Notes: generated by a model not told the origin, from the letters alone. A stretch of 64,000 nucleotides of DNA from Candidatus Parcubacteria bacterium (GCA_046050355.1 JBJOPW010000003.1:11922-75921), one strand, 5' to 3'; shown: positions 48,256 to 59,077, numbered from the stretch's first letter. Translations and numbers: made by a program.

Positions 48256-49461
48256 TTATACGGCAGACAGCCACAACCCATACCCAGCAGCTTCCATCTC
48301 GGCCTGCGGGATAAAGCGAAGCGCCGCCCCATTCATACAGTACCGTTGACCACCCCGGTCGGCTGGACCGTCTGGAAAGACGTGTCCAAGATGCGAGTCA
48401 GCAAAGCGTGAACGAACCTCCGTACGGGTAGAAAAGAGTTTTTTGTCTTCATGGAGCGTGACTACCTCGTCGCTGATGGGACGTACAAACGACGGCCAGC
48501 CAGTTCCCGAATCATACTTGTCTCGTGAAGAAAACAGTGGTTCGCCGGAAACAATATCAACATAAATACCGGCCTCGTAATTTTTATCAAGCTCGCTGGT
48601 ACTCGAGCGCTCGGTGCTATCTTCCTGCGTCACACGGTACGATACGTCAGATAAAATTTGTCGTAACTCCGCTTCCCCAGGCTTTACAAAATTGTTCCAA
48701 CTCTCAGCAGTAAACGGTGTTTGCATAGTATTTTTATTTACGTTACTAACTTCAGGCCCAGTCGAGAATTCAAATGTATCTGCACTACTGCCCCAAACAC
48801 TTTGATAAAACTTAGTTCGTCCTGATGCAGCTCGATAATAATTGTAGCGAACCGGATTTTTGACTGCATAGTCTTGATGGTAATCCTCGGCAGCAAAAAA
48901 TGCTGGCCTTGGTAACAGTGCTATCGTCACTGGTTCGCTATATTTGCCGGCGGCATTAACCGCCTCTATCACTTGTTTAGCCGCCTCCTGTTCTTCGTCT
49001 GTTTCGTAGTACACCGCCGGTGCATACTGTACCCCGCGATCATAAAACGATCCTTCGGCATCAGTGGGGTCGCCGTGTTTCAATATATGTTCAACGAGGT
49101 TTTTGTATGATACCACCGTCGGATCATAGGTGACTTCGACTACCTCACGATGTCCTCCCGCCGCATAGTTTTCGTAGGTAGGACTATCGGTAGTACCGCC
49201 AGCATACCCCGAGACCACAGCAACGACACCAGCCACTGCCTCCAAATCATGCTCAACACACCAGAAACAACCATTGGCGAGGATTGCACTGGCGGTATTG
49301 GTGGCTACGATGTTCACATGCGGCGTAACGACAGGTTCACGCAGGATTGGCGTTGAAACGTTTTCCGGCAACCACAACATCACTCCTAAAACGAGAAAGG
49401 TTCCCATCACCGCAAATCCAACCAAGAGTTTAGGAAGCGGCATAGCAGTCAAAGTACACAC
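48256..49461 (-). CDS. msrAB: bifunctional peptide methionine sulfoxide reductase MsrA-MsrB fusion
   Basis: MsrA GCFWCVE active site in the N-half; MsrB RYCMN/GWPSF motifs in the C-half; signal/TM at the N-terminus. Confidence 0.85.
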
Positions 49462-50126
49462 TATTCGAGACTAAAGGTGGCGCGTGTTGTCACCATTACT
49501 TCTTTGTTCAGTGAACCGGTATCGTATGAGCCGTAGTCACTAATATCTACCCCACCCTGTGGCAATACCTGGACCACGCCACCCACCGCATTACGCAACA
49601 TCCCAACCTCTCGTCCTGATTCAGAGGCAATGGCTTCGGCTCGAGCAGTGGCGTCTTTGATGGCTTCAGAGAGGAGCGAGACCCGCATTTCATCAAGCTT
49701 ACTGTAGGTGAGTTCAAGTCCTCCGGTAGTCACCACATACCCATCGCCATTGAGGGGACTGAGGTCGTTTGCGAGCGCAGTCAATTTTGCCACGTCACTG
49801 CCGCGGACAATCACGCTCCGGTTAATGGTATACCCAGTCTGTACCGCCTCGGCGTTTTGTGGGTAGTAGTACGTCGCACTAATGTTGCCGGCCGGTGTTT
49901 CAAAGTCAGTATGACCTTCTTTAGTCAAATACGACGTGACTTTTTCGACCGCTCGACCGAGTCGCTCCACCCCTGCCTGCTGATCACCCAAACCAGTCTT
50001 TGTTTCGAGATTGATAATGAGTCGACCAGTATCTGCTACTACCGCCTCTTTGGCTGAGCCAGTCACCTCAATGGTATCGCTCGCCAGTTTGATATCGTAA
50101 AGTACCTGACCACCGTACCAAACCAT
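49461..50126 (-). CDS. SIMPL-domain (DUF541) protein
   Basis: N-terminal TM then SIMPL-like pattern. Confidence 0.5.
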
Positions 50127-50231: not shown

Positions 50232-51794
50232 TTACCTGTCTGCCGCTACCTCGATATCTACTACTTCTTTTGTGATAAGTGATTCACTCACGGCAATATT
50301 GTCTTGCAGACGCTTGAGGATTTTTATTTCTTCCCGAGTGAGCTTGCGCTTTTTACTCGCTTTTTCAAGGGATTCTATATCAACCTCAAGATCTGCTTTA
50401 AGCAGGGTAAATGACTTATGCACCATCATCCGAGCTTCGGTGATTTCGGTATGGAGTCTCTTTTTGAAGCCTGTAAACGTGCGCCAACTCCAGAGCAACA
50501 TCAGTCCCGTGAGTACAAGGAGTATGAGACTTGGCACCACAATCGCCAACACCGTTGCTGCTACGACACCAGTATTCAACGTCATCGTCTCGCCAAAGAG
50601 TGATCGGATTGGTGTTTCTTGGGGTGTCGATGTTGTCACTGCCGAAGAGACGTCAGCAATAGTGATTGTCTCAGTGCGAGACAAAATATTACCAGCCTGG
50701 TCGATAGCCCGTATGGTGACACTATGCTCACCGACGGTAAGCCCACTAAACTTGTATATAGGTCTATTACCGTCAATCAAAATTGGTTCGCTGTCACCGA
50801 CAACTACTTCATAGCGCATAATCCCAGAAATGCCATCAAAGGCGGTGAAACCAAACACATTATCGCCGAGATTGGTTACTGCCATTTTTTCTGGTGGCGT
50901 TGTATCAACTTGGAGCTTGTAGTGTTCTATAGCTCCCCAACCGGATGCCGTTTTGTACTGTACATGGAGGTATGAAATGCCCTCAGCCAAATCCTCAATC
51001 GTGCGGCTGGTAATTGGTGGCGTGTAGACTACAGTCGGCACTGAATCTGGTTGTTCGTCTACCAAGAGTCGCATCGCTACCACATCATCAGTCAGGGCAA
51101 AATTAAATGTACCAGTCGTTTCTTTTGACCAACTATCTGGAGCATGGCTCAAGGACTCGACTTTTGATACCGGCTGATTATTTACGCCATCATCAGTCAC
51201 CAAGGTAACAGGCTGTATCCCTGTCCCTGACGGCTTTGTTTCCACCACTGGTGCAGATGGCGTATCAACTACCGGAGCTGGTTCAGTCAGCTGGTACGTC
51301 GCGCTACCGCGGCTTTGTAATATTTCGGTACCCAGTCCATCATTGGCGAGCACTGACGCAGTACTGTAACTGAGTACCGCGGTCCCCACCGCTTTTACTC
51401 TAAAGGTTACCGTCAAAATCGCACCGCCCTGACCGGTATAACCTGGATTGAGGCTAATACCTTCAAAATTGATAGTGCCGGCACTATTTGAAAACGATGG
51501 TTCTACGACCCAGAGTGAAATGAGGGAGTGACTTTTTGACACCGACACCACCTCGAGTTGATTTGATGGAAACGACACTGTACCCGATACTGCATTCACT
51601 GCCTTGTCGCTACTCCCCACCGTGATAGTTGTAACAATCGTCGACCCAACAGCATACGAACCGCTCGTTCGATCAAAGGATAAACTTGCCGCCGCAGTTA
51701 TCGCCGGCATAGCAAATACAACGAGGAAGCCACTAAGGATTACACCAAGCGAGTACGGTAATAAGTACGAGCAAAATAAAGACCGAGTAGACAC
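50232..51794 (-). CDS. membrane-anchored surface protein with cohesin-like N-terminal domain
   Basis: Signal/TM, beta-sandwich-like region (SFDRTSGSYAVGSTIVTTITV...FEGISLNPGYTGQGGAILTVTFRVKAVGTAVLSY), C-terminal TM and coiled-coil tail. Start uncertain (overlaps upstream gene by 55 nt). Confidence 0.45.
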   Translation of the reverse strand: MSTRSLFCSYLLPYSLGVILSGFLVVFAMPAITAAASLSFDRTSGSYAVGSTIVTTITVGSSDKAVNAVSGTVSFPSNQLEVVSVSKSHSLISLWVVEPSFSNSAGTINFEGISLNPGYTGQGGAILTVTFRVKAVGTAVLSYSTASVLANDGLGTEILQSRGSATYQLTEPAPVVDTPSAPVVETKPSGTGIQPVTLVTDDGVNNQPVSKVESLSHAPDSWSKETTGTFNFALTDDVVAMRLLVDEQPDSVPTVVYTPPITSRTIEDLAEGISYLHVQYKTASGWGAIEHYKLQVDTTPPEKMAVTNLGDNVFGFTAFDGISGIMRYEVVVGDSEPILIDGNRPIYKFSGLTVGEHSVTIRAIDQAGNILSRTETITIADVSSAVTTSTPQETPIRSLFGETMTLNTGVVAATVLAIVVPSLILLVLTGLMLLWSWRTFTGFKKRLHTEITEARMMVHKSFTLLKADLEVDIESLEKASKKRKLTREEIKILKRLQDNIAVSESLITKEVVDIEVAADR

Positions 51795-52606
51795 AATACT
51801 AGTATACCGATAATGCGGAGAGACTGTTCATACTGACCAACCCCATTTTGGGGATAGAGTACGGCGGTGCGCGTGTTACCATTTTTATCAACGGCCTTTA
51901 CATAAATCTTTTTATCAAGATTTTGATGCTGTAACTCGTACGGACTTTCTGTTTGCTGGTAGGTACCAAACCAACCTTCTTTCACCGCCATGTAATCAAG
52001 GCCAGAGCCTTTGTCTTCGGTAGCAAATATAAGCGTCCACGCTCCCCCAAACATATCCGGGTCGCGAACAATTTGTGGTGTAAAAGCTTCTGGTAGTTCA
52101 TCATCAACCATTTGTATTGACACCATGGACGGACCAGCCACCACCGCCAGATGCAGGTTTTCTACTTGAGTCTTTGCTGGTGTACCCATCCCATCATGGA
52201 GGAGAATTTCATGAGTAGTGATATCAATCTTGCCCTGACCTAGAGCGGTGGCTTTGAAGTGTAGCGTGATAACGGTTATCGCTTCGCCGCTAAATCCACC
52301 CGGGGTAATACCGCTGAGAACAATTTTTCCTTTGGTTTCTTCTTTTGGTCGTTCTACCCAGAGCGAGACGACCGAATCACCGTCATCAAAATCAACAAAT
52401 TCAAGAAACTCAGTCGGGTACGTAAGGGCCATACCGACAGTATTCATTGTTTGCCCTTCAGTATCAAGCACTACAGCAACTATCACATCATCACCAACCC
52501 GCGAAGTCTTAAAATCACTTTGGAGCGTCAAATCAGCGGCCTGCACATACGGTACCCAAACAAAAAGCGCTAATCCACATATTCCCACTAGTAAAATCTG
52601 TCGCAT
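51740..52606 (-). CDS. membrane-anchored surface protein with cohesin-like domain (paralog of previous)
   Basis: Signal peptide MRQILLVGICGLALFVWVPYVQA, then RVGDDVIVAVVLDTEGQTMNTVGMALTYPTEFLEFVD...GFSGEAITVITLHFKATALG, then C-terminal TM. Confidence 0.45.
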   Translation of the reverse strand: MRQILLVGICGLALFVWVPYVQAADLTLQSDFKTSRVGDDVIVAVVLDTEGQTMNTVGMALTYPTEFLEFVDFDDGDSVVSLWVERPKEETKGKIVLSGITPGGFSGEAITVITLHFKATALGQGKIDITTHEILLHDGMGTPAKTQVENLHLAVVAGPSMVSIQMVDDELPEAFTPQIVRDPDMFGGAWTLIFATEDKGSGLDYMAVKEGWFGTYQQTESPYELQHQNLDKKIYVKAVDKNGNTRTAVLYPQNGVGQYEQSLRIIGILVLCLLGLYFARTYYRTRLV

Positions 52607-52607
52607 A

Positions 52608-53657
52608 CTACCCGGTCCAATTAAATGCCAATATACTAAAGTCGACCAAGTTAATCTTGCCGTCACCATTAAGGTGTTTCGCTTCACGGAGTGCAAACTC
52701 TGGTGTCATTGACCGTAAGTACCAAAAAGCGGCAATAGAAAAATCAACCAGGTTAACCCGACAATCCGCATTAAGATCAGCGCGCGGGCTACACTCTACT
52801 GATGCTTCACGATACACATCTTTGGTGCCAACCGAAAAAGCATACGCCGCACTCTGTGAAGAAATCGTGTCTTCGATACTCGAGCGCGCTTTGGCGTGAT
52901 GCTCCCCCACTTCGAGTACCGATGAATCAAAACTACGCAGGTACACACCATCAGTACCAGCGGTAGTTTTTACAAAAAATTGTTGCTCAGAATTAACTTC
53001 TAGTGTTACGGCAGAGAGCGGGAAGCTCTGCCCAAAGAGGATGATCGGGTTTCCTTTTTTTACTTCAATTTTATCTCCCGTAATGGTAGGAGCGACATAG
53101 ACACTTTCGATTTTGGCAAGAATGTTTCTGGTCACGGTGACTGGAAAGGTGAGCAGTGACGAACGAATCCCTTTGGTGTCTTCACTATAGAGTGAAAAAA
53201 TGTAGGTACCAGCGGCTAGACCCCGCACGAGGACTTGAAACGTAGCGTTCTCATCCGCTATGGTAGTTGCTACTACCTGCGCATCCTTAAGAATCGTCAC
53301 TTCACTGCCTGGATAAGCCCGACCAGTAATCACCACTTGGGCTCCACGGGTTTGACTGCCACCGCCACCTCCGCCGCCGCCACTTGGTGGCGTGTAGACA
53401 CAGGAGAGGGTATTAAACAAACACGATGAGGTACAAGCAAGGACGCCGCTGGTGAATCCGCGTGACTGACACGAGGCACCACCAAAGTTTCCGCTATCAC
53501 ATTCTTCGCCGCTATCAATGATGCCATCCCCACATCCAGGCACTCGCCCTTCTATTATGACTGTACTACTACCAACTCCTTGAGCAAAAATTGTGTTTGT
53601 GTAAGCAAAAACCAGCACTAGTACCAACAACGCACTTCCCGTTAGCAAATACCGCAT
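52608..53657 (-). CDS. secreted protein with Cys-rich N-domain, Gly8 linker, Ig-like middle and C-terminal dockerin-type repeat pair
   Basis: Two dockerin-like Ca-binding repeats: DLNADCRVNLVDFSIAAFWYL and LNGDGKINLVDFSILAFNW (D.N.DG.VN..D...L). Confidence 0.55.
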   Translation of the reverse strand: MRYLLTGSALLVLVLVFAYTNTIFAQGVGSSTVIIEGRVPGCGDGIIDSGEECDSGNFGGASCQSRGFTSGVLACTSSCLFNTLSCVYTPPSGGGGGGGGSQTRGAQVVITGRAYPGSEVTILKDAQVVATTIADENATFQVLVRGLAAGTYIFSLYSEDTKGIRSSLLTFPVTVTRNILAKIESVYVAPTITGDKIEVKKGNPIILFGQSFPLSAVTLEVNSEQQFFVKTTAGTDGVYLRSFDSSVLEVGEHHAKARSSIEDTISSQSAAYAFSVGTKDVYREASVECSPRADLNADCRVNLVDFSIAAFWYLRSMTPEFALREAKHLNGDGKINLVDFSILAFNWTG

Positions 53658-53663
53658 CGCACA

Positions 53664-54623
53664 TTAGCTACTCTTTTTACTTTTTGAGATAATCCACGCG
53701 TTGTATCGTTTGAGCAGAACGATAAGGATGATGATTGCGACCACAACGACGGTGAGGAGTTGCCATGGTACTAGCAAAAACCACAGCGAGTCACTGACCG
53801 TTTGATTGGTTGCGCCATAGACGACAGATAAGTTCGCTTTATACAAACCAAAGTGAAAATCACTGAGCTGATTTTTTACAGTACCAAAAAATGAAGTGGT
53901 GGTAGTAGCGCCTGCGAGACTGCCCCACACTGGTTCAAACTTACGAGTGCTATTAGGCAACACACTTCCTTCGTTTATGTTGGCAGAGATAGTCGCAGCC
54001 GTTCCACCAAACATATTTTTGATCGTGATATCACCAAGCGGTACTACTCGGTCACCGCCACTGTTAGCAAAGCGGTATTGAAAACTAACCGGCAGATCAA
54101 CCTGTAGACGAGAACCGGTAAGGGTAAAATCTTTGATACCCGCCGCTTCAGGAATGTCTCCCGAGACACGCAGGAGAATGAGTACGCCGAGCTTCCCACC
54201 AATTGCTACTTCGCCAGCGGCTTCGATCTCTGGATCTTGTTCGCCCCAAAAGATAGCAGCAAAATACCCACCCGGTTCGGCATCATTTGGAATCGTGATG
54301 GTGAACGGTACTTTTTTGGTTTCGCCGGTGGCCAGTAGGACACTGGTTTCTGTTCCCAGCCAGGTAGCCAGCCCATCGGACCCGCCAATAAACTTTGGTG
54401 AGCCGGTATCACCACTTGGTTCAAAGTTTTCAAACGATGAGAAAAAGGTCTTCGATCCAGCCTGCTCATTAAGCATCTCAAGTTCACCATGGAGGGTTTG
54501 TCCGGGGTCACCAGTCACCTCAATAGTCACCGGCGAAATCGTCAGGGCCTTGGCTTCATGGTTCCCCACAAAAAAACATAACAAAAGTGCTGCGACCAAT
54601 GTTATGTTTTTGAGTGATTTCAT
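53664..54623 (-). CDS. DUF916/CscA-like cell-surface protein (signal peptide, beta-rich ectodomain, C-terminal TM anchor)
   Basis: MKSLKNITLVAALLLCFFVGNHEAKA signal, ISPVTIEVTGDPGQT start of ectodomain, C-terminal TM plus basic tail KRYNAWIISKSKKSS. Confidence 0.45.
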   Translation of the reverse strand: MKSLKNITLVAALLLCFFVGNHEAKALTISPVTIEVTGDPGQTLHGELEMLNEQAGSKTFFSSFENFEPSGDTGSPKFIGGSDGLATWLGTETSVLLATGETKKVPFTITIPNDAEPGGYFAAIFWGEQDPEIEAAGEVAIGGKLGVLILLRVSGDIPEAAGIKDFTLTGSRLQVDLPVSFQYRFANSGGDRVVPLGDITIKNMFGGTAATISANINEGSVLPNSTRKFEPVWGSLAGATTTTSFFGTVKNQLSDFHFGLYKANLSVVYGATNQTVSDSLWFLLVPWQLLTVVVVAIIILIVLLKRYNAWIISKSKKSS

Positions 54624-54668: not shown

Positions 54669-55736
54669 TTAGAAGTTGGCCGTAGCTACGTAGGTTACCG
54701 CGCCTGTATATGAACCGGCTTCAGTGTTCGCGGTAATGTTAGCAATATAACGAGCTGAGTATGTCGTGTTCGCCGATGCCCCTGAAGCTGAAGCGATAAT
54801 ATCAGGGAAGGCAGCAGTATCAAATGCAAATCCAGCAGCGGCGTAGGGAGCAACCACCGCACCAGAGCCACCGGTGGCTGTCATACGAAGACCAAATTGC
54901 TCAGTACCAACTGATGAGGCAGTGTTTGCTGCACCAATTGCCGTGATGGTATTGGCCCCCGAGGTGAGCGTAGTACCACCAACGGTCATGGTGTAGCCAT
55001 TGGCGGCGTTTGTACCAACAATCACATTGTGTGCTTCACCTTCAGAACCTGCACCGGCACCAGTACCATCCGCAAAACGAGCAGCCGAAGCTGATAGTGT
55101 GCCAAAACCAATGGTAGTGTCAGAAATACTGAATGTCAGTGACTGGGGCACGGTAGCGGTAATATCAACTTGGTTACTCGTCAACATATTAACGGTCATA
55201 TCACCCGCATCACCAAACGCCCCACTAATCGAGATTACGTATGATCCCGGTGTTGATGGGTTGATTGCATTAGTTCCATCCATGGTGATGATGATTTTAT
55301 CGCTTGGTGCTACAGCGGCTGCACCAACACCGTCAGTAGGCGCCGTGAGCGTCAAGACGCGGTTCTGTGTGGACGAGAATGCCGCTCCCCACGCTGTGGC
55401 TGAAGCCGAGGCGGCCAATGTTTCTGTACTTTCTGCACCAGTGGTTGCACCGTGAGTAAATGTCACGGTACCAATCGTTTTACTCGTGAAGTTGAAGTCT
55501 GACGGGAAGGTAATGATGATCGTATCAGTGTTGTTGTTGGCTCCAGTCGGGGTCGTAAAGCGAATGGTATGGGTTGAGGTTGCGCTCACCGTCAATGACG
55601 ACATCGTGTCTGAAGCATTGGTGATCGATGCAGCCCTTGCCACCTGCATTGGCACGATCGCCAACATAATAATGGCGACACTGAGAAGCAAACTGATGGT
55701 CTGCGTACTGTAATTTTGTAAAACGGATAAACTCAT
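54669..55736 (-). CDS. secreted WxL-like (CscB/C-type) surface protein
   Basis: Signal peptide. C-terminal ~170 aa with QSLTFSISDTTIGFGTLS, GTEQFGLRMTA and terminal GSYTGAVTYVATANF blocks, paralogous to 58088-59077. Confidence 0.5.
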   Translation of the reverse strand: MSLSVLQNYSTQTISLLLSVAIIMLAIVPMQVARAASITNASDTMSSLTVSATSTHTIRFTTPTGANNNTDTIIITFPSDFNFTSKTIGTVTFTHGATTGAESTETLAASASATAWGAAFSSTQNRVLTLTAPTDGVGAAAVAPSDKIIITMDGTNAINPSTPGSYVISISGAFGDAGDMTVNMLTSNQVDITATVPQSLTFSISDTTIGFGTLSASAARFADGTGAGAGSEGEAHNVIVGTNAANGYTMTVGGTTLTSGANTITAIGAANTASSVGTEQFGLRMTATGGSGAVVAPYAAAGFAFDTAAFPDIIASASGASANTTYSARYIANITANTEAGSYTGAVTYVATANF

Positions 55737-55879: not shown

Positions 55880-57103
55880 GTGACCATCTATACTATGCTC
55901 CGAAACGTATTTGGACTCATTTCAACCGCCAACAAAGTCTTCAGTGTTCTTTTGTTATTCGCCCTTTCGGTGGCGATTTTTCGCTATGTCTATGCGGCTA
56001 CTCCGAACCCCGGACACAATTTTAGCGCGATTGGCGGTGGAGCAGTCCAAGGTGATCTGCTCTATGGTTCAGCGGCCGATACGCTCTCAGCTCTCCCTAA
56101 AGATACTAACGCTACTCGTTACCTCTCAAATACTGGAGCGAGTAACAACCCCGCCTGGGCGCAGGTGAATCTCACAAATGGTGTGACAGGAATTTTGCCG
56201 GGTGCAAATGGCGGCACCGGCAATGGCTTCTTTGCCGTCAGCGGACCCGCTACTGCCCTGCGCACCTTTACCTTCCCTAATGCTGACGCCACCGTCCTCA
56301 CAAGTAACGCCGCGGTGACAGTGGCTCAAGGAGGCACCGGCCTGACGACCTTGACTGTCAATAACCTCCTCGTTGGTAACGGGACCGGTAACGTTACCTT
56401 TATTGCCCCGTCAACTGATGGCAATATCCTCCAATCAAACGGCACCACCTGGATTAGTACAACGGGAGGTGTGATTCACGGCCGCCAAACCCTCACCTCA
56501 GGTACTACCTATACACCAACCACCGGCACCAAAGAAATTTGGATCCGCATGTGGGGTGGTGGTGGTGGTGGTGGTGGTTGTTCTGCTGTGGCTGGTTGTG
56601 CCGGCGGAGGTGGCGGTTCTGGCGGTTACGCTGAATATTACCTCACCGGTGTCACCGGAACCTATACCTATGCTATTGGTGCCGCCGGAGCTGGGAACTC
56701 AGGTGCGGCCGGAGGAAACGGTGGTAACACCACCTTTAACACCGGTGTTACCACCATCACTGCCTTTGGTGGTACGGGTGGAACCTTTACCGCCGGTACA
56801 GCCGCGATCAAATTTATGCCTGGTGGAGCTGGTGGCGTGATTTCAACCAATGGTCACGTTAACGGTGCTGGCGCCCCAGGAGACAACGGTATGACCAGTA
56901 CCGTAAACACGGTGGTGATGTCAGGCGCTGGAGGTGCTACTGCTCTTGGGGGCGCTGGTAACGGTCGTAACACCACCGGTGCCGGGAACGCCGCCATCGC
57001 CAACACCGGCTCTGGTGGTGGTGGCGCTGCCGCTGCGGCCGCCACGGCCAATGCTGGTGGCGCTGGTGCTGCTGGTGTCATTATTATCACTGAATTTAGA
57101 TAA
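55880..57103 (+). CDS. secreted glycine-rich repetitive protein (beta-solenoid / tail-fibre-like)
   Basis: Signal anchor, then GxGxT-type repeats (LPGANGGTGNGFFAVSG..., VAQGGTGLTTLTV), a Gly8 run, GGxGG repeats to the C-terminus. Confidence 0.5.
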   Translation: MTIYTMLRNVFGLISTANKVFSVLLLFALSVAIFRYVYAATPNPGHNFSAIGGGAVQGDLLYGSAADTLSALPKDTNATRYLSNTGASNNPAWAQVNLTNGVTGILPGANGGTGNGFFAVSGPATALRTFTFPNADATVLTSNAAVTVAQGGTGLTTLTVNNLLVGNGTGNVTFIAPSTDGNILQSNGTTWISTTGGVIHGRQTLTSGTTYTPTTGTKEIWIRMWGGGGGGGGCSAVAGCAGGGGGSGGYAEYYLTGVTGTYTYAIGAAGAGNSGAAGGNGGNTTFNTGVTTITAFGGTGGTFTAGTAAIKFMPGGAGGVISTNGHVNGAGAPGDNGMTSTVNTVVMSGAGGATALGGAGNGRNTTGAGNAAIANTGSGGGGAAAAAATANAGGAGAAGVIIITEFR

Positions 57104-57105
57104 CA

Positions 57106-58110
57106 ATGACTGCACGTCTGTACCACCAACCAAGCCCGCTCTTACTCTTTCCAGTCTTCTTACTGCTGATTATTTTTTGTATACCAACTACCCACGGACA
57201 AACACCAACAGAAACACCCGACATCGCCACACCGGTGGTTTCTACACCAAACTTTCTACTCGATACACCCATTTTCACAAACGTTGAACAGTCTGCCGTG
57301 CTGTTGACGCCGACGTTTTCTGATAATAGTACCAACCTTGCCTTTTATCTTCGTTGCCCGCACACTCTGTGTGGGAATGAAGACCTGTCGGCATCACCGT
57401 ATTACCAATTTAGTGCCGAAAATATTGGTCGCGGTAGCCTCCCCTTTAGTGAGTACTGGGCGCCACCCACTGCCACCGACTATGCGGTAATTGAATATGC
57501 CAACGACAACCAGCAATTTAGTTGCTCGGGACTGACGTTTGAGGCCTGTCTTGCTGATACACATTTTGTGCAGGTATTTTATTTTGCTGTGGTTGACGAT
57601 AGTAGCACCATCACCCCCGAACTACGCGCCGAAAAAGAACGTCTCAACAATCCAAATCCGCTGAGTGCAGAGGCAGATACCGCAGCCGTCAGTGAAGAGC
57701 TGCGGTTACTCTCGATCAATCTCTCCTCTACTTCTATCAGTTCTGACCTCGATAACGGACTGATCGTGACCGCTTCACTCGATGGCATCCCAAGTGTCGT
57801 ACTCGCCTCTGATAGTACCAGTAGCACGGCAACAGCGACAGACAGTACTCCTGAAAGCAGTTCTCCGATCAAGGATTTTTTTGCTGATGTTGTTGAAACG
57901 GTAGTGGGATTATTTACCGAACCAGACACGCCTCCCCCACCAACTGAAACGGTCACACCTCCTGAGTCTGTCCCGCCACCAGTCACCCCAAGCGACCTTG
58001 AACCAACCACAACCAACGACACACCATCGCCATCTTTTCTCGATACGGTACAATCATTCATATCGACGGATGTAACCACCCCAGACGATGTCACGACTGC
58101 TTCATTCTAA
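57106..58110 (+). CDS. secreted S/T/P-rich hypothetical protein
   Basis: Signal peptide, Cys-containing middle domain, PPPP/Ser-Thr-rich C-terminal half. Confidence 0.45.
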   Translation: MTARLYHQPSPLLLFPVFLLLIIFCIPTTHGQTPTETPDIATPVVSTPNFLLDTPIFTNVEQSAVLLTPTFSDNSTNLAFYLRCPHTLCGNEDLSASPYYQFSAENIGRGSLPFSEYWAPPTATDYAVIEYANDNQQFSCSGLTFEACLADTHFVQVFYFAVVDDSSTITPELRAEKERLNNPNPLSAEADTAAVSEELRLLSINLSSTSISSDLDNGLIVTASLDGIPSVVLASDSTSSTATATDSTPESSSPIKDFFADVVETVVGLFTEPDTPPPPTETVTPPESVPPPVTPSDLEPTTTNDTPSPSFLDTVQSFISTDVTTPDDVTTASF

Positions 58111-59077
58111 AATTATCGCCGGCCTCCTCATCTGCGGCCTCATTATGCTTGTCACCCCGCAGACAAATGCCGGTACGCTTTCATGTTCGATTACCACTAA
58201 TGCCGCTTGTACCCAAACCAAGATTCTTCGTCTCTCAGATACCACCAACGCCCACGCTGAACTTCCAAGTCAATCAACTGCTGCTTATGATAACAATGTG
58301 GTCTGCTGCACGAACGTCATTGGTCTTGGCAACTCTTGCGCGGGCACCAATGCTATTGCGGTCAAACTATCCGCCACCACCAATGCCCACGCCGAACAAA
58401 ACACCGAAGCCAACTATGCTGGTAACAATGCCTGTATCTCGGTTCCAACTGGTGGCAGTGTGACCGTTGGTTACCAGGCGTCGAACTGCACCGGCTACGA
58501 CACCACTATCGGCTCAATCGAATCACTCACAAACTCCCACGTCGGTGATGCAGCAGCGTATACCACCAAAATCTGCGCGACCGCCTCGGGTGTGCCGCAG
58601 ACACTCGTCTTTAGTATCTCTGATAACAGTATTGGGTTTGGTTCACTCTCACCGGTCCAAACCAGGTACGCCACAGGAGATACCGTCGGTGCTACCAGTG
58701 ACAGTGCTGACGCACATACTATTTCTATCGCCAGTAACGCAACAGGAGGTTATAGTATGACGATTAGTGGACAGACCCTGACCTCTGGGGCTCATACTAT
58801 TACTGCCATCGGCGGAACGGCCGTTGCCCCTGCTGTAGGTAACGAGCAATTTGGTGTACGCTTGAGCGTTAACTCCGGCACTGGCTCAGCAGCTTCACCA
58901 TATAACGGCAGTAATTGGGCACTTGATACCGGTGCCTTCCCAGACACTATAGTGACCGGAAGTGGTGACTCGGTAACTACGGTGTATGGCGCCCGGTATA
59001 TGGTAAACACGGCCACACTCACCGAACCCGGCAACTACAACGCTGTTATCACATATACTGTTACGGCTACATTCTAA
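58088..59077 (+). CDS. secreted WxL-like surface protein (paralog of 54669-55736) with Cys-rich N-domain
   Basis: QTLVFSISDNSIGFGSLS, GNEQFGVRLSV, GNYNAVITYTVTATF blocks align with 54669-55736. N-half has two TTNAHAE repeats and 11 Cys. Confidence 0.5.
   Translation: MSRLLHSKIIAGLLICGLIMLVTPQTNAGTLSCSITTNAACTQTKILRLSDTTNAHAELPSQSTAAYDNNVVCCTNVIGLGNSCAGTNAIAVKLSATTNAHAEQNTEANYAGNNACISVPTGGSVTVGYQASNCTGYDTTIGSIESLTNSHVGDAAAYTTKICATASGVPQTLVFSISDNSIGFGSLSPVQTRYATGDTVGATSDSADAHTISIASNATGGYSMTISGQTLTSGAHTITAIGGTAVAPAVGNEQFGVRLSVNSGTGSAASPYNGSNWALDTGAFPDTIVTGSGDSVTTVYGARYMVNTATLTEPGNYNAVITYTVTATF

Follow-up and report, generated by a model that had tools for sequence, protein, structure and literature searches.

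A dockerin-cohesin-cohesin gene trio in the 3' part of a Parcubacteria pilus gene cluster: a candidate membrane tether for a surface filament

What do a dockerin and two cohesins do in a bacterium of the Candidate Phyla Radiation (CPR)? The question is raised by the dockerin and cohesin genes of a 64-kb stretch of DNA (64,000 nucleotides, analyzed whole and here called the window) from a Candidatus Parcubacteria (CPR/Patescibacteria) bacterium, which the original prediction for this DNA had taken for a minimal scaffold set displayed on the cell membrane. CPR bacteria are thought to live attached to host cells, and the building and holding of their surface filaments are largely unknown. The dockerin/cohesin region is the 3' part of a cluster that runs from a Pam-type pilin gene through a WxLIP-like chaperone gene to the genes for one dockerin protein (D) and two cohesin proteins (C2 and C3). 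The cohesin-dockerin pair probably serves here to fasten a surface filament or adhesin to the cell membrane. The Pam pilus itself became known only with a preprint of 2026, which predicts its tether (bioRxiv 10.64898/2026.03.03.709456).

The first step was to establish which genes belong together and in which order they are read. Open reading frame (ORF) calls give a cluster of five minus-strand genes, transcribed in the order P5, P4, P1, P2, P3. When families are compared across loci, P1 is called D, P2 is called C2, P3 is called C3 and P4 is called Ch. The genes, the evidence for each and the domains they encode, including immunoglobulin-like (Ig) and fibronectin type III (FnIII)-like domains and transmembrane (TM) helices, are as follows.

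54669..55736, minus strand: P5, a Pam-type pilin of 355 aa (NCBIfam NF058581).
53664..54623, minus strand: P4 (Ch), a candidate WxLIP/DUF916-like membrane-anchored chaperone (PamC/D-like) of 319 aa (Pfam and PDB family matches, hydropathy).
52608..53657, minus strand: P1 (D), a secreted dockerin protein of 349 aa (ORF; AlphaFold2 (AF2) model; weak Pfam matches to Big_6, DUF4215 and Dockerin_1).
51740..52606, minus strand: P2 (C2), a cohesin with an FnIII-like domain and a TM helix, 288 aa (Pfam Cohesin, AF2, Foldseek, family profile).
50232..51794, minus strand: P3 (C3), a cohesin with an Ig/Big_13 region, a TM helix and a tail, 520 aa (BLASTP, hidden Markov model (HMM) search, Pfam matches of orthologues, hydropathy).

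Because all of these genes lie on the minus strand, the dockerin gene is transcribed first and the cohesin genes come after it; the original prediction, in which the cohesins were the two upstream genes, had the order reversed. The genes are tightly packed, with 1 nt separating P1 from P2 and with P2 and P3 overlapping. The start of P2 is most likely the ATG at 52606, which gives 288 aa; the upstream TTG at 52696 of the listed ORF overlaps P1. For P3, the GTG at 51794, overlapping the end of P2, is the more likely start, and the public gene call, which begins at Met29 (492 aa), cuts off a signal peptide that is present in the orthologues. Hydropathy analysis shows a signal segment at the N-terminus of all five proteins, P1 through P5, and a C-terminal TM helix followed by basic residues in P2 (260-283), P3 (403-438) and P4. 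Scans for transcription signals found promoter-like sites at chance level and 18 terminator-like sites against a shuffle mean of 9.4, yet none of the latter at an operon boundary.

The next question is whether P1 is a dockerin protein. P1, whose sequence recurs with 100% identity as a hypothetical protein in a Candidatus Parcubacteria metagenome-assembled genome (MAG), consists of a signal peptide, a donor-strand-like N-terminus, a six-cysteine module, a run of glycines, two Ig domains and, at its C-terminus, a two-repeat dockerin. Its parts are listed below with the AF2 confidence score (pLDDT, predicted local distance difference test) where it bears on them.

53538..53567, minus strand: donor-strand-like motif V-x-I-x-x-x-V-P, STVIIEGRVP, P1 residues 31-40, near the mature N-terminus (motif; low pLDDT).
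53400..53534, minus strand: Cys-rich module (CGDG...EECD), P1 residues 42-86 (matches below cut-off to Pfam DUF4215, E 0.0024, and to NCBIfam myxo_disulf_rpt, E 0.0037).
53358..53381, minus strand: Gly8 linker of exactly 8 Gly, P1 residues 93-100 (sequence; pLDDT <50).
52827..53342, minus strand: two Ig/FnIII-like stalk domains, P1 residues 106-277 (pLDDT >90; Foldseek; Pfam Big_6).
52611..52802, minus strand: type I-like dockerin with two F-hand repeats and NWTG at the end, P1 residues 286-349 (Pfam and PDB profile matches).

The tandem dockerin repeats that had been proposed for the end of this protein are present, with two deviations in their loops, as DLNADCRVNLVDFSIAAF (residues 294-311) and LNGDGKINLVDFSILAF (residues 329-345), and they are preceded, as had also been proposed, by the Gly8 linker and the Cys-rich module. 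The isolated C-terminal 64 aa match Pfam Dockerin_1 (PF00404) with 24.3 bits against a cut-off of 22.9, and full-length P1 scores 17.9 bits, below that cut-off. All 35 orthologous C-termini examined match Dockerin_1 (best E 1.4e-12), which is the best Pfam family for every one of them; generic EF-hand models are also matched by 14 of the 35. Searches of the PDB sequences with phmmer, using the single P1 and P2 sequences, returned sub-significant matches only, and family profiles were therefore needed; the dockerin family profile matches the type I dockerins 2y3n_B (2.5e-7), 4fl4_A (2.9e-6) and 5nrm_B (3.9e-6) across both repeats. At positions 1, 3, 5, 9 and 12 of the Ca2+-binding loops, loop 1 has D294, N296, D298, N302 and D305, and loop 2 has H328, N330, D332, N336 and D339; loop residues are invariant or almost so across the family, and the two repeats of P1 are near-identical (12 of 20 positions). 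Loop 1 deviates in having a Cys (C299) instead of Gly at position 6. The C-terminus of P1 is a dockerin, a designation established by sequence, with the fold unconfirmed. A chance motif as the source of the repeats is ruled out by the Pfam and profile E-values and by conservation in every orthologue.

A separate observation concerns the same segment (window 52725-52790, P1 residues 289-311), where C299 pairs in the sequence with C289, 10 residues upstream. A large share of the orthologues retain this pair ('C....D.N.DC'); it might make a disulfide staple, an unusual feature for a dockerin.

Upstream of the dockerin, the Cys-rich module has six invariant cysteines (C42, C53, C63, C75, C79 and C86), and a poly-Gly run is present in every D variant. 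The Ig stalk matches the adhesin stalk repeats 4p99, 7dm0 and 2yn3 in Foldseek, and its Pfam Big_6 match of 26.7 bits lies below the cut-off of 27.6.

The partners expected for a dockerin are encoded by the two genes that follow. P2 consists of a signal peptide, a cohesin (residues 24-156), an FnIII-like domain (about 170-252), a C-terminal TM helix (about 258-283) and a short basic tail. Its match to Pfam Cohesin (PF00963) is marginal, at 24.8 bits against a cut-off of 24.1. The AF2 model of P2 has a pLDDT of 88, with residues 24-156 mostly around 90, and shows a nine-stranded sandwich, a second sandwich and a C-terminal helix at 258-287. The top Foldseek match of this model is the cohesin+FnIII tandem of C. 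perfringens GH84C (2w1n, 6.7e-11), followed by dozens of solved cohesins (among them 6kgc_A, 2xdh, 2vo8, 5nrm_A and 1aoh) with target-normalized TM-scores of 0.69-0.81 and E-values of 1e-5 to 1e-8; the model also matches RbmA (4kkp) weakly (E 2.4e-5, TM-score 0.21-0.30). The P2 family profile matches a Ruminococcus flavefaciens cohesin (5aoz, 3.3e-4), and the family includes at least 58 homologues, which are about 290 aa long and come exclusively from CPR.

P3 has a signal peptide, a cohesin (residues 35-169), an Ig/Big_13 region, a TM segment (about 409-437) and a charged tail of 83 aa. Its N-terminal domain is paralogous to the P2 cohesin (BLASTP 2e-15; C2-cohesin HMM 5.6e-27). P3 itself has no Pfam Cohesin match at E<=0.01; among its orthologues, 16 of 31 match Pfam Cohesin (best 2e-10) and 27 of 31 match Big_13. 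The Dockerin_1 and Cohesin searches and the structure prediction of cohesin-like domains that had been proposed as checks on the original prediction turned out in its favor: the isolated P1 C-terminus and P2 lie above the Pfam cut-offs, P3 is recognized through its orthologues, and the P2 model is a cohesin jelly-roll. Hydropathy, Pfam and paralogy likewise bear out its topology of one secreted dockerin protein and two cohesin proteins that are each TM-anchored at the C-terminus. The cytoplasmic tail that it gave to one anchor is also present, as a conserved helical tail in P3; the interval 51740-53657 that it assigned to the set leaves out almost all of that protein (50232-51794).

The two cohesin families share residues that are at least 80% conserved in both, namely N55, A56, W83, P87, F97, G99, G104, L135 and N137-D138-G139-x-G141, and these map mostly to strands 3, 5, 6 and 8 and to the 8-9 loop of the P2 model. 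The face formed by strands 8-3-6-5 of type I cohesins is the dockerin-binding face in solved complexes. By analogy with these established structures, the conserved residues would make up a dockerin-binding face in C2 and C3 as well.

The P3 tail was noted as a feature in its own right. It spans window positions 50235-50483 (residues 438-520), is charged and predicted to be helical, and is conserved across distant CPR lineages in most loci, with the motif LEK(A/T)xxKRKLTxEE...AE..I.KEI.DIE (LEKAxxKRKLTREE in the window). No family match was found for it, and its conservation suggests a cytoplasmic partner.

Whether these three genes form a unit was addressed by collecting 86 related loci through a scan of one genome per GTDB species together with contig look-ups, using a 14-sequence alignment as query and iterated HMMs for annotation. 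The loci come from Paceibacteria/Parcubacteria, Kaiser-, Nomura-, Taylor-, Magasanik-, Falkow-, Doudna- and Portnoybacteria and related groups. The order D, C2, C3 is conserved in about 80 of the 86 CPR loci, and the exceptions are mostly at contig ends. A P4-type gene lies directly upstream of D in at least 46 of the 86, the window included, and P5-type genes occur in 30. Searches with HMMs of the dockerin and both cohesins show that the 64-kb window holds exactly one dockerin and two cohesins, and across the 86 loci dockerins are confined to the P1 family (HMM); the dockerin/cohesin set is closed. Across 70 loci the dockerin averages 60% pairwise identity, compared with 49% for the cohesin of C3 and 37% for that of C2. 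Some of these CPR proteins are already annotated by NCBI as cohesin- or dockerin-containing.

Several features of individual loci (L numbers are our locus handles) were observed in passing. In two loci (L004:7649-8023 and L005:3768-4142), a GIY-YIG endonuclease gene (124 aa) separates the dockerin gene from the first cohesin gene, whose start it overlaps; it resembles a mobile insertion of a homing endonuclease into a gene order that is otherwise fixed. In five loci that have no Pam pilins (L026:915-8099, L048:3-6122, L057:3-4178, L058:3-4433 and L067:2-4567), a giant surface protein of 1400-2400 aa with a Pro-rich C-terminus precedes the triad, as does a conserved protein of about 130-140 aa that crosses the membrane once (...KAILYSPSxxKIIEVAPL...). 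Numerous third-party MAG records with this CPR-type cluster (L010, L011, L025, L033, L057 and others) are labelled 'uncultured Gammaproteobacteria' or 'Candidatus Saccharibacteria', and these labels look unreliable.

The genes upstream of the trio indicate what it may serve. In the Pam pilus of Candidatus Mycosynbacter amalyticus, pilins are joined by donor-strand exchange, the chaperones PamC/D are membrane-anchored, and an RbmA-like TM-anchored tether, PamR, has an N-terminal strand for which insertion into the last pilin is predicted (Troman et al., bioRxiv 10.64898/2026.03.03.709456, 2026). Two pilins of the window pass the NCBIfam model NF058581 CPR_Pam_pilin_C (cut-off 55), that at 54669-55736 with 79.2 bits and that at 58088-59077 with 64.7 bits. 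In the first of these, P5, residues 190-197 form the linker strand VDITATVP, after which comes QSLTFSIS. Hydropathy divides P4 into signal peptide, ectodomain and C-terminal TM helix; 9 of 37 members of its family match Pfam WxLIP_PGBD (best 3.5e-7), and the family profile matches EfmWxLIP1 in the PDB (9i25/9i1y, 3.6e-4). P4 fits the description of the PamC/D membrane-anchored chaperones and is a candidate for that role, likened to them by description.

A link between D and the pilins themselves is found in a shared motif. Where their N- and C-terminal domains meet, major pilins have (N/D)QV(D/A)(I/V)TATV(P/D)QSLTFSIS, the linker motif sitting about 8 residues before QSLTFSIS in Pam-type pilins, and in many D orthologues an AxA signal-peptide cleavage site is directly followed by ITVEITATVPGCGDG. 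The assigned proteins, about 146,000 residues in all, contain the pattern V.[IV].[AGS].V[PAEDSV] 66 times, and 58 of these occurrences are in pilins (27, nearly all at the domain junction) or in D (31, with 29 of them at residues 14-51). The motif is present in the first 60 residues of D in 22 of 27 loci with Pam-type pilins upstream, versus 5 of 38 without (Fisher p = 3e-8, uncorrected for relatedness). This regular-expression and position test replaced a position-specific scoring matrix (PSSM) built from 10 pilin linker strands, which gave per-protein p-values of about 0.005-0.03 for D proteins of the ITVEITATVP type. In the AF2 model the N-terminal strand of P1 is unstructured and of low pLDDT, which is expected of a free donor strand and is not proof of one. 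P2 has no donor-like N-terminal strand; D has that strand instead.

D and the pilins also share a domain. D variants of greater length (430-460 aa) have at their start an entire domain that a minor Pam-type pilin has at its N-terminus (46% identity over 168 aa, E 1e-41). This shared part, made up of an 'SSNF'/NF-motif head and an FnIII domain, is followed by poly-Gly, the two Ig domains and the dockerin, which replace the linker and the C-terminal acceptor domain of the pilin. A profile search of 1.84 billion representatives showed a D family with a constant poly-Gly/Ig-Ig/dockerin part and variable heads. The search returned 2017 clusters at E<=1e-30, a count that is inflated by giant proteins with many Cys-rich repeats and is therefore not a family size. 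The domain swap between pilin and dockerin protein can be seen by comparing the D variants at L057:4706-6049, L048:6574-7884, L026, L021 and others with the pilins at L029:4785-5789 and L042:3547-4569.

We favor a reading in which P1 is a pilus-proximal adaptor whose dockerin is plugged into the membrane cohesins; we rate this reading at slightly under an even chance. The identity of the modules, their topology, the co-occurrence and order of the genes, the pilus setting and the motif and domain that D shares with pilins are shown, and from these we infer the binding, the cohesin that is the partner, the insertion of the strand and the tethering role. D is secreted, and its C-terminal dockerin would plug, probably in a Ca2+-dependent manner, into the cohesin of C2 and/or C3. 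Each of these is anchored in the cytoplasmic membrane by its C-terminal helix, with the conserved tail of C3 lying in the cytoplasm, and D would therefore be tethered to the membrane non-covalently. The mature N-terminal strand of D (STVIIEGRVP in the window, ITVEITATVP in many orthologues) may mimic the linker (donor) strand of a pilin and complete the open C-terminal Ig domain of the last pilin. Since D has no acceptor domain, polymerization would end at this point and the base of the pilus would be tied to the membrane. D would in this way act as a terminator-tether like PapH or PamR, its function split over two or three polypeptides by way of the cohesin-dockerin joint. The presence of two dockerin repeats and two cohesin genes is compatible with dual-mode binding and also with a single dockerin that bridges both anchors, the latter being speculation. 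The wider proposal is that in Paceibacteria-type CPR the cohesin-dockerin joint serves as the membrane tether of the pilus, with a terminating subunit D that joins a donor strand or pilin domain to a dockerin and with two cohesin anchors. We hold this proposal more loosely, as a possibility that falls somewhat short of even.

Several observations weigh against the adaptor reading. The window's own STVIIEGRVP is a weak match to the pilin linker, sharing the common residues V, I, V and P only, and the PSSM did not pick out the N-terminus of P1. The NF-head of the long D variants also matches the N-terminal half of the NCBIfam model for the PamT tip pilin (positions 8-116), so the head may have a donor role or another one. 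In the window's clade, loop 2 of the dockerin has no Asp at position 1 and has His instead. AF2 models P1 residues 290-349 with a pLDDT of 42-73, placing strands at 306-316 and 334-344 where two helices are expected and a helix at 319-328 within the same low-confidence segment, and the top 50 Foldseek matches of the P1 model hold Ig-stalk matches only and no dockerin structure; with low confidence and strands in place of helices, the dockerin fold is therefore unconfirmed. Pairwise divergences of dockerin and cohesins are weakly correlated (Spearman 0.26-0.34) and are not used as evidence. The report on the Pam pilus, its supplement included, makes no mention of cohesin or dockerin (bioRxiv 10.64898/2026.03.03.709456). 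Finally, the triad is also found without detectable Pam pilins, after giant proteins of 1400-2400 aa or after nothing recognizable, and the tether is therefore not pilus-specific.

The last point makes display of variable heads the main rival, the triad being found after giant surface proteins or without recognizable cargo. D would then be a stand-alone surface adhesin or receptor-binding protein rather than a pilus subunit, with the Cys-knot or the variable head as its active part, borne on the Gly hinge and Ig stalk and held by C2 and C3; pilus and giant-adhesin genes would adjoin only since all serve host attachment. The constant poly-Gly/Ig-Ig/dockerin part with its variable N-terminal heads, the triads without Pam pilins in about a quarter of the loci, and the similarity of the Ig stalk to adhesin stalk repeats all speak for this view, which shares the dockerin and cohesin evidence with the adaptor reading. 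The heads, however, are not random: one type has the pilin linker motif exactly at the mature N-terminus, in correlation with upstream pilin genes, and another is a complete pilin N-terminal domain. The type-a head, moreover, is highly conserved rather than diversifying. We consider stand-alone display rather unlikely, and still the strongest competitor.

It is also conceivable that the cohesin-like and dockerin-like modules do not bind one another. C2 and C3 would be an assembly platform or extra chaperones for pilins (a substitute for an usher), and the dockerin-like segment that ends D would serve as a structural element that holds Ca2+, or would have another binding partner, such as the host surface or the cell wall. 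This would agree with an AF2 model in which the dockerin fold was not recovered, with the matches of P2 to RbmA-type FnIII tandems and of 14 of the 35 dockerin segments to generic EF-hand models, and with a C2 cohesin that is far less conserved than the dockerin (37% versus 60%). Against it, about 80 loci have one dockerin gene next to two cohesin genes in an unvarying order and no further dockerin in the vicinity, which is the look of a cognate pair; Dockerin_1 is the best Pfam family for all 35 members; and the residues conserved in common lie on the 8-3-6-5 face of the cohesin. We regard this alternative as improbable. Membrane display of dockerin-tagged enzymes by a minimal scaffold of the cellulosome type is barely credible: cohesin and dockerin modules are present and the cohesins are membrane-anchored, but in the 64-kb window the sole dockerin is on a non-enzymatic protein, there is no enzyme such as a glycoside hydrolase, and neither a carbohydrate-binding module (CBM) nor a scaffoldin with several cohesins is found, the cohesins come one per anchor, and the trio is the invariant 3' part of a CPR Pam-type pilus cluster, so that the scaffold idea is not upheld and enzyme display is rejected.

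Beyond the five-gene cluster, the window contains a divergent group of plus-strand genes.

55880-57103, plus strand: Gly_rich_2 'tail-fibre-like' protein (Pfam Gly_rich_2, 1.7e-11).
57106-58110, plus strand: proline/threonine-rich (P/T-rich) secreted protein, 334 aa (ORF).
58088-59077, plus strand: second Pam-type pilin, with a Cys-rich repeat-like N-terminal domain (TNAHAE repeats; NF058581).

These companion genes (55880..59077) also accompany the cluster in L006-L009, L018, L039 and L052, and they are co-linear with it in the last three. In L004 (5344-5868, 174 aa) and L014/L044, small pilin-like proteins of about 170-200 aa and a short TM-anchored chaperone-like protein of about 200 aa replace the Pam-type pair; the 174-aa protein of L004 has a weak NCBIfam match to the 'sunset domain' of CPR ribosomal protein variants (E 0.002). 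Immediately beyond the 3' end of the cluster (window 48256-50126, minus strand) are genes for a SIMPL-domain protein and a membrane-anchored fused MsrA/MsrB (PMSR+SelR), extracytoplasmic protein-repair functions that adjoin an envelope-protein operon.

In the literature searched, nothing links CPR cohesin and dockerin proteins as a conserved triad, or to the Pam pilus. A conserved dockerin/cohesin/cohesin trio after pilin and chaperone genes offers a concrete model for the fixation of filaments or fibres in much of the CPR. If the model is true, it would add a mode of pilus anchoring that uses neither sortase nor usher, would give widespread CPR cohesin and dockerin proteins their first assigned function, and would extend the use of the cohesin-dockerin pair from enzyme scaffolding to the anchoring of surface appendages. 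Through its cytoplasmic tail, C3 could link the filament with the interior of the cell, and thousands of CPR proteins now called "hypothetical", "cohesin domain-containing" or "dockerin type I repeat-containing" would gain a functional context.

Comparison with known systems places the trio among several of them. In cellulosome anchoring, the CipA XDoc of Clostridium thermocellum goes with the SdbA/OlpB cohesins, and type I cohesin-dockerin complexes are represented by 2y3n, 4fl4 and 5nrm. Shared with these are a dockerin of two F-hand repeats with near-identical putative recognition helices, a nine-stranded jelly-roll cohesin and, on the reading favored here, an extracellular assembly attached to the cell. 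The CPR set differs in lacking enzymes, CBM and multi-cohesin scaffoldin, in its C-terminal TM anchor as opposed to S-layer homology (SLH) domains or sortase, in a cargo that would be a pilus or adhesin stalk, and in the Cys pair of loop 1 (C289-C299) and the missing first Asp of loop 2. Cohesins and dockerins outside the cellulosome are already known, and those of C. perfringens GH84C (2w1n, the best structural match of P2) and Archaeoglobus fulgidus (2xdh) share with the trio a use outside cellulose degradation; they are found on toxins, glycosidases or soluble proteins, and none is a conserved, membrane-anchored and pilus-linked three-gene set.

PapH of P pili donates a strand to the last pilin and cannot accept one, and it both ends growth and anchors the fibre. 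The resemblance of D to this chaperone-usher component is a functional analogy only, with no sequence relation: the window's D has no pilin fold and would be anchored by its dockerin as opposed to an usher. WxLIP proteins have two Ig-like domains and a C-terminal TM helix, and the proposal is that they complete their client by inserting a beta-hairpin (Hassan et al. 2023, PMC10599100). Sequence similarity connects the P4 family with WxLIP of the WxL/WxLIP (DUF916-DUF3324) clusters of Enterococcus and Lactobacillus; the likeness is limited to this neighboring chaperone, and no WxL domain, cohesin or dockerin is described in those clusters.

A close counterpart is the Pam pilus, which is likewise CPR-specific. 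Pilins whose C-terminal Ig domain is truncated and a nearby gene for a Gly-rich 'tail-fibre-like' protein are common to both systems, and P4 is the candidate counterpart of the two-domain Pam chaperone, which is Sec-secreted and membrane-anchored. PamR, with about 300 aa (32.8 kDa), two beta-sandwich domains and a C-terminal TM helix, is like P2 in architecture and size; P2 and PamR, and P4 and PamC/D, are likened by published description and not by sequence. The lineages differ, being Paceibacteria/Parcubacteria here and Saccharimonadia there. PamR itself has the N-terminal strand, whereas here the strand (on D) and the anchors (C2 and C3) are separate proteins that would be joined through dockerin and cohesin, and the second of these anchors adds a conserved cytoplasmic tail.

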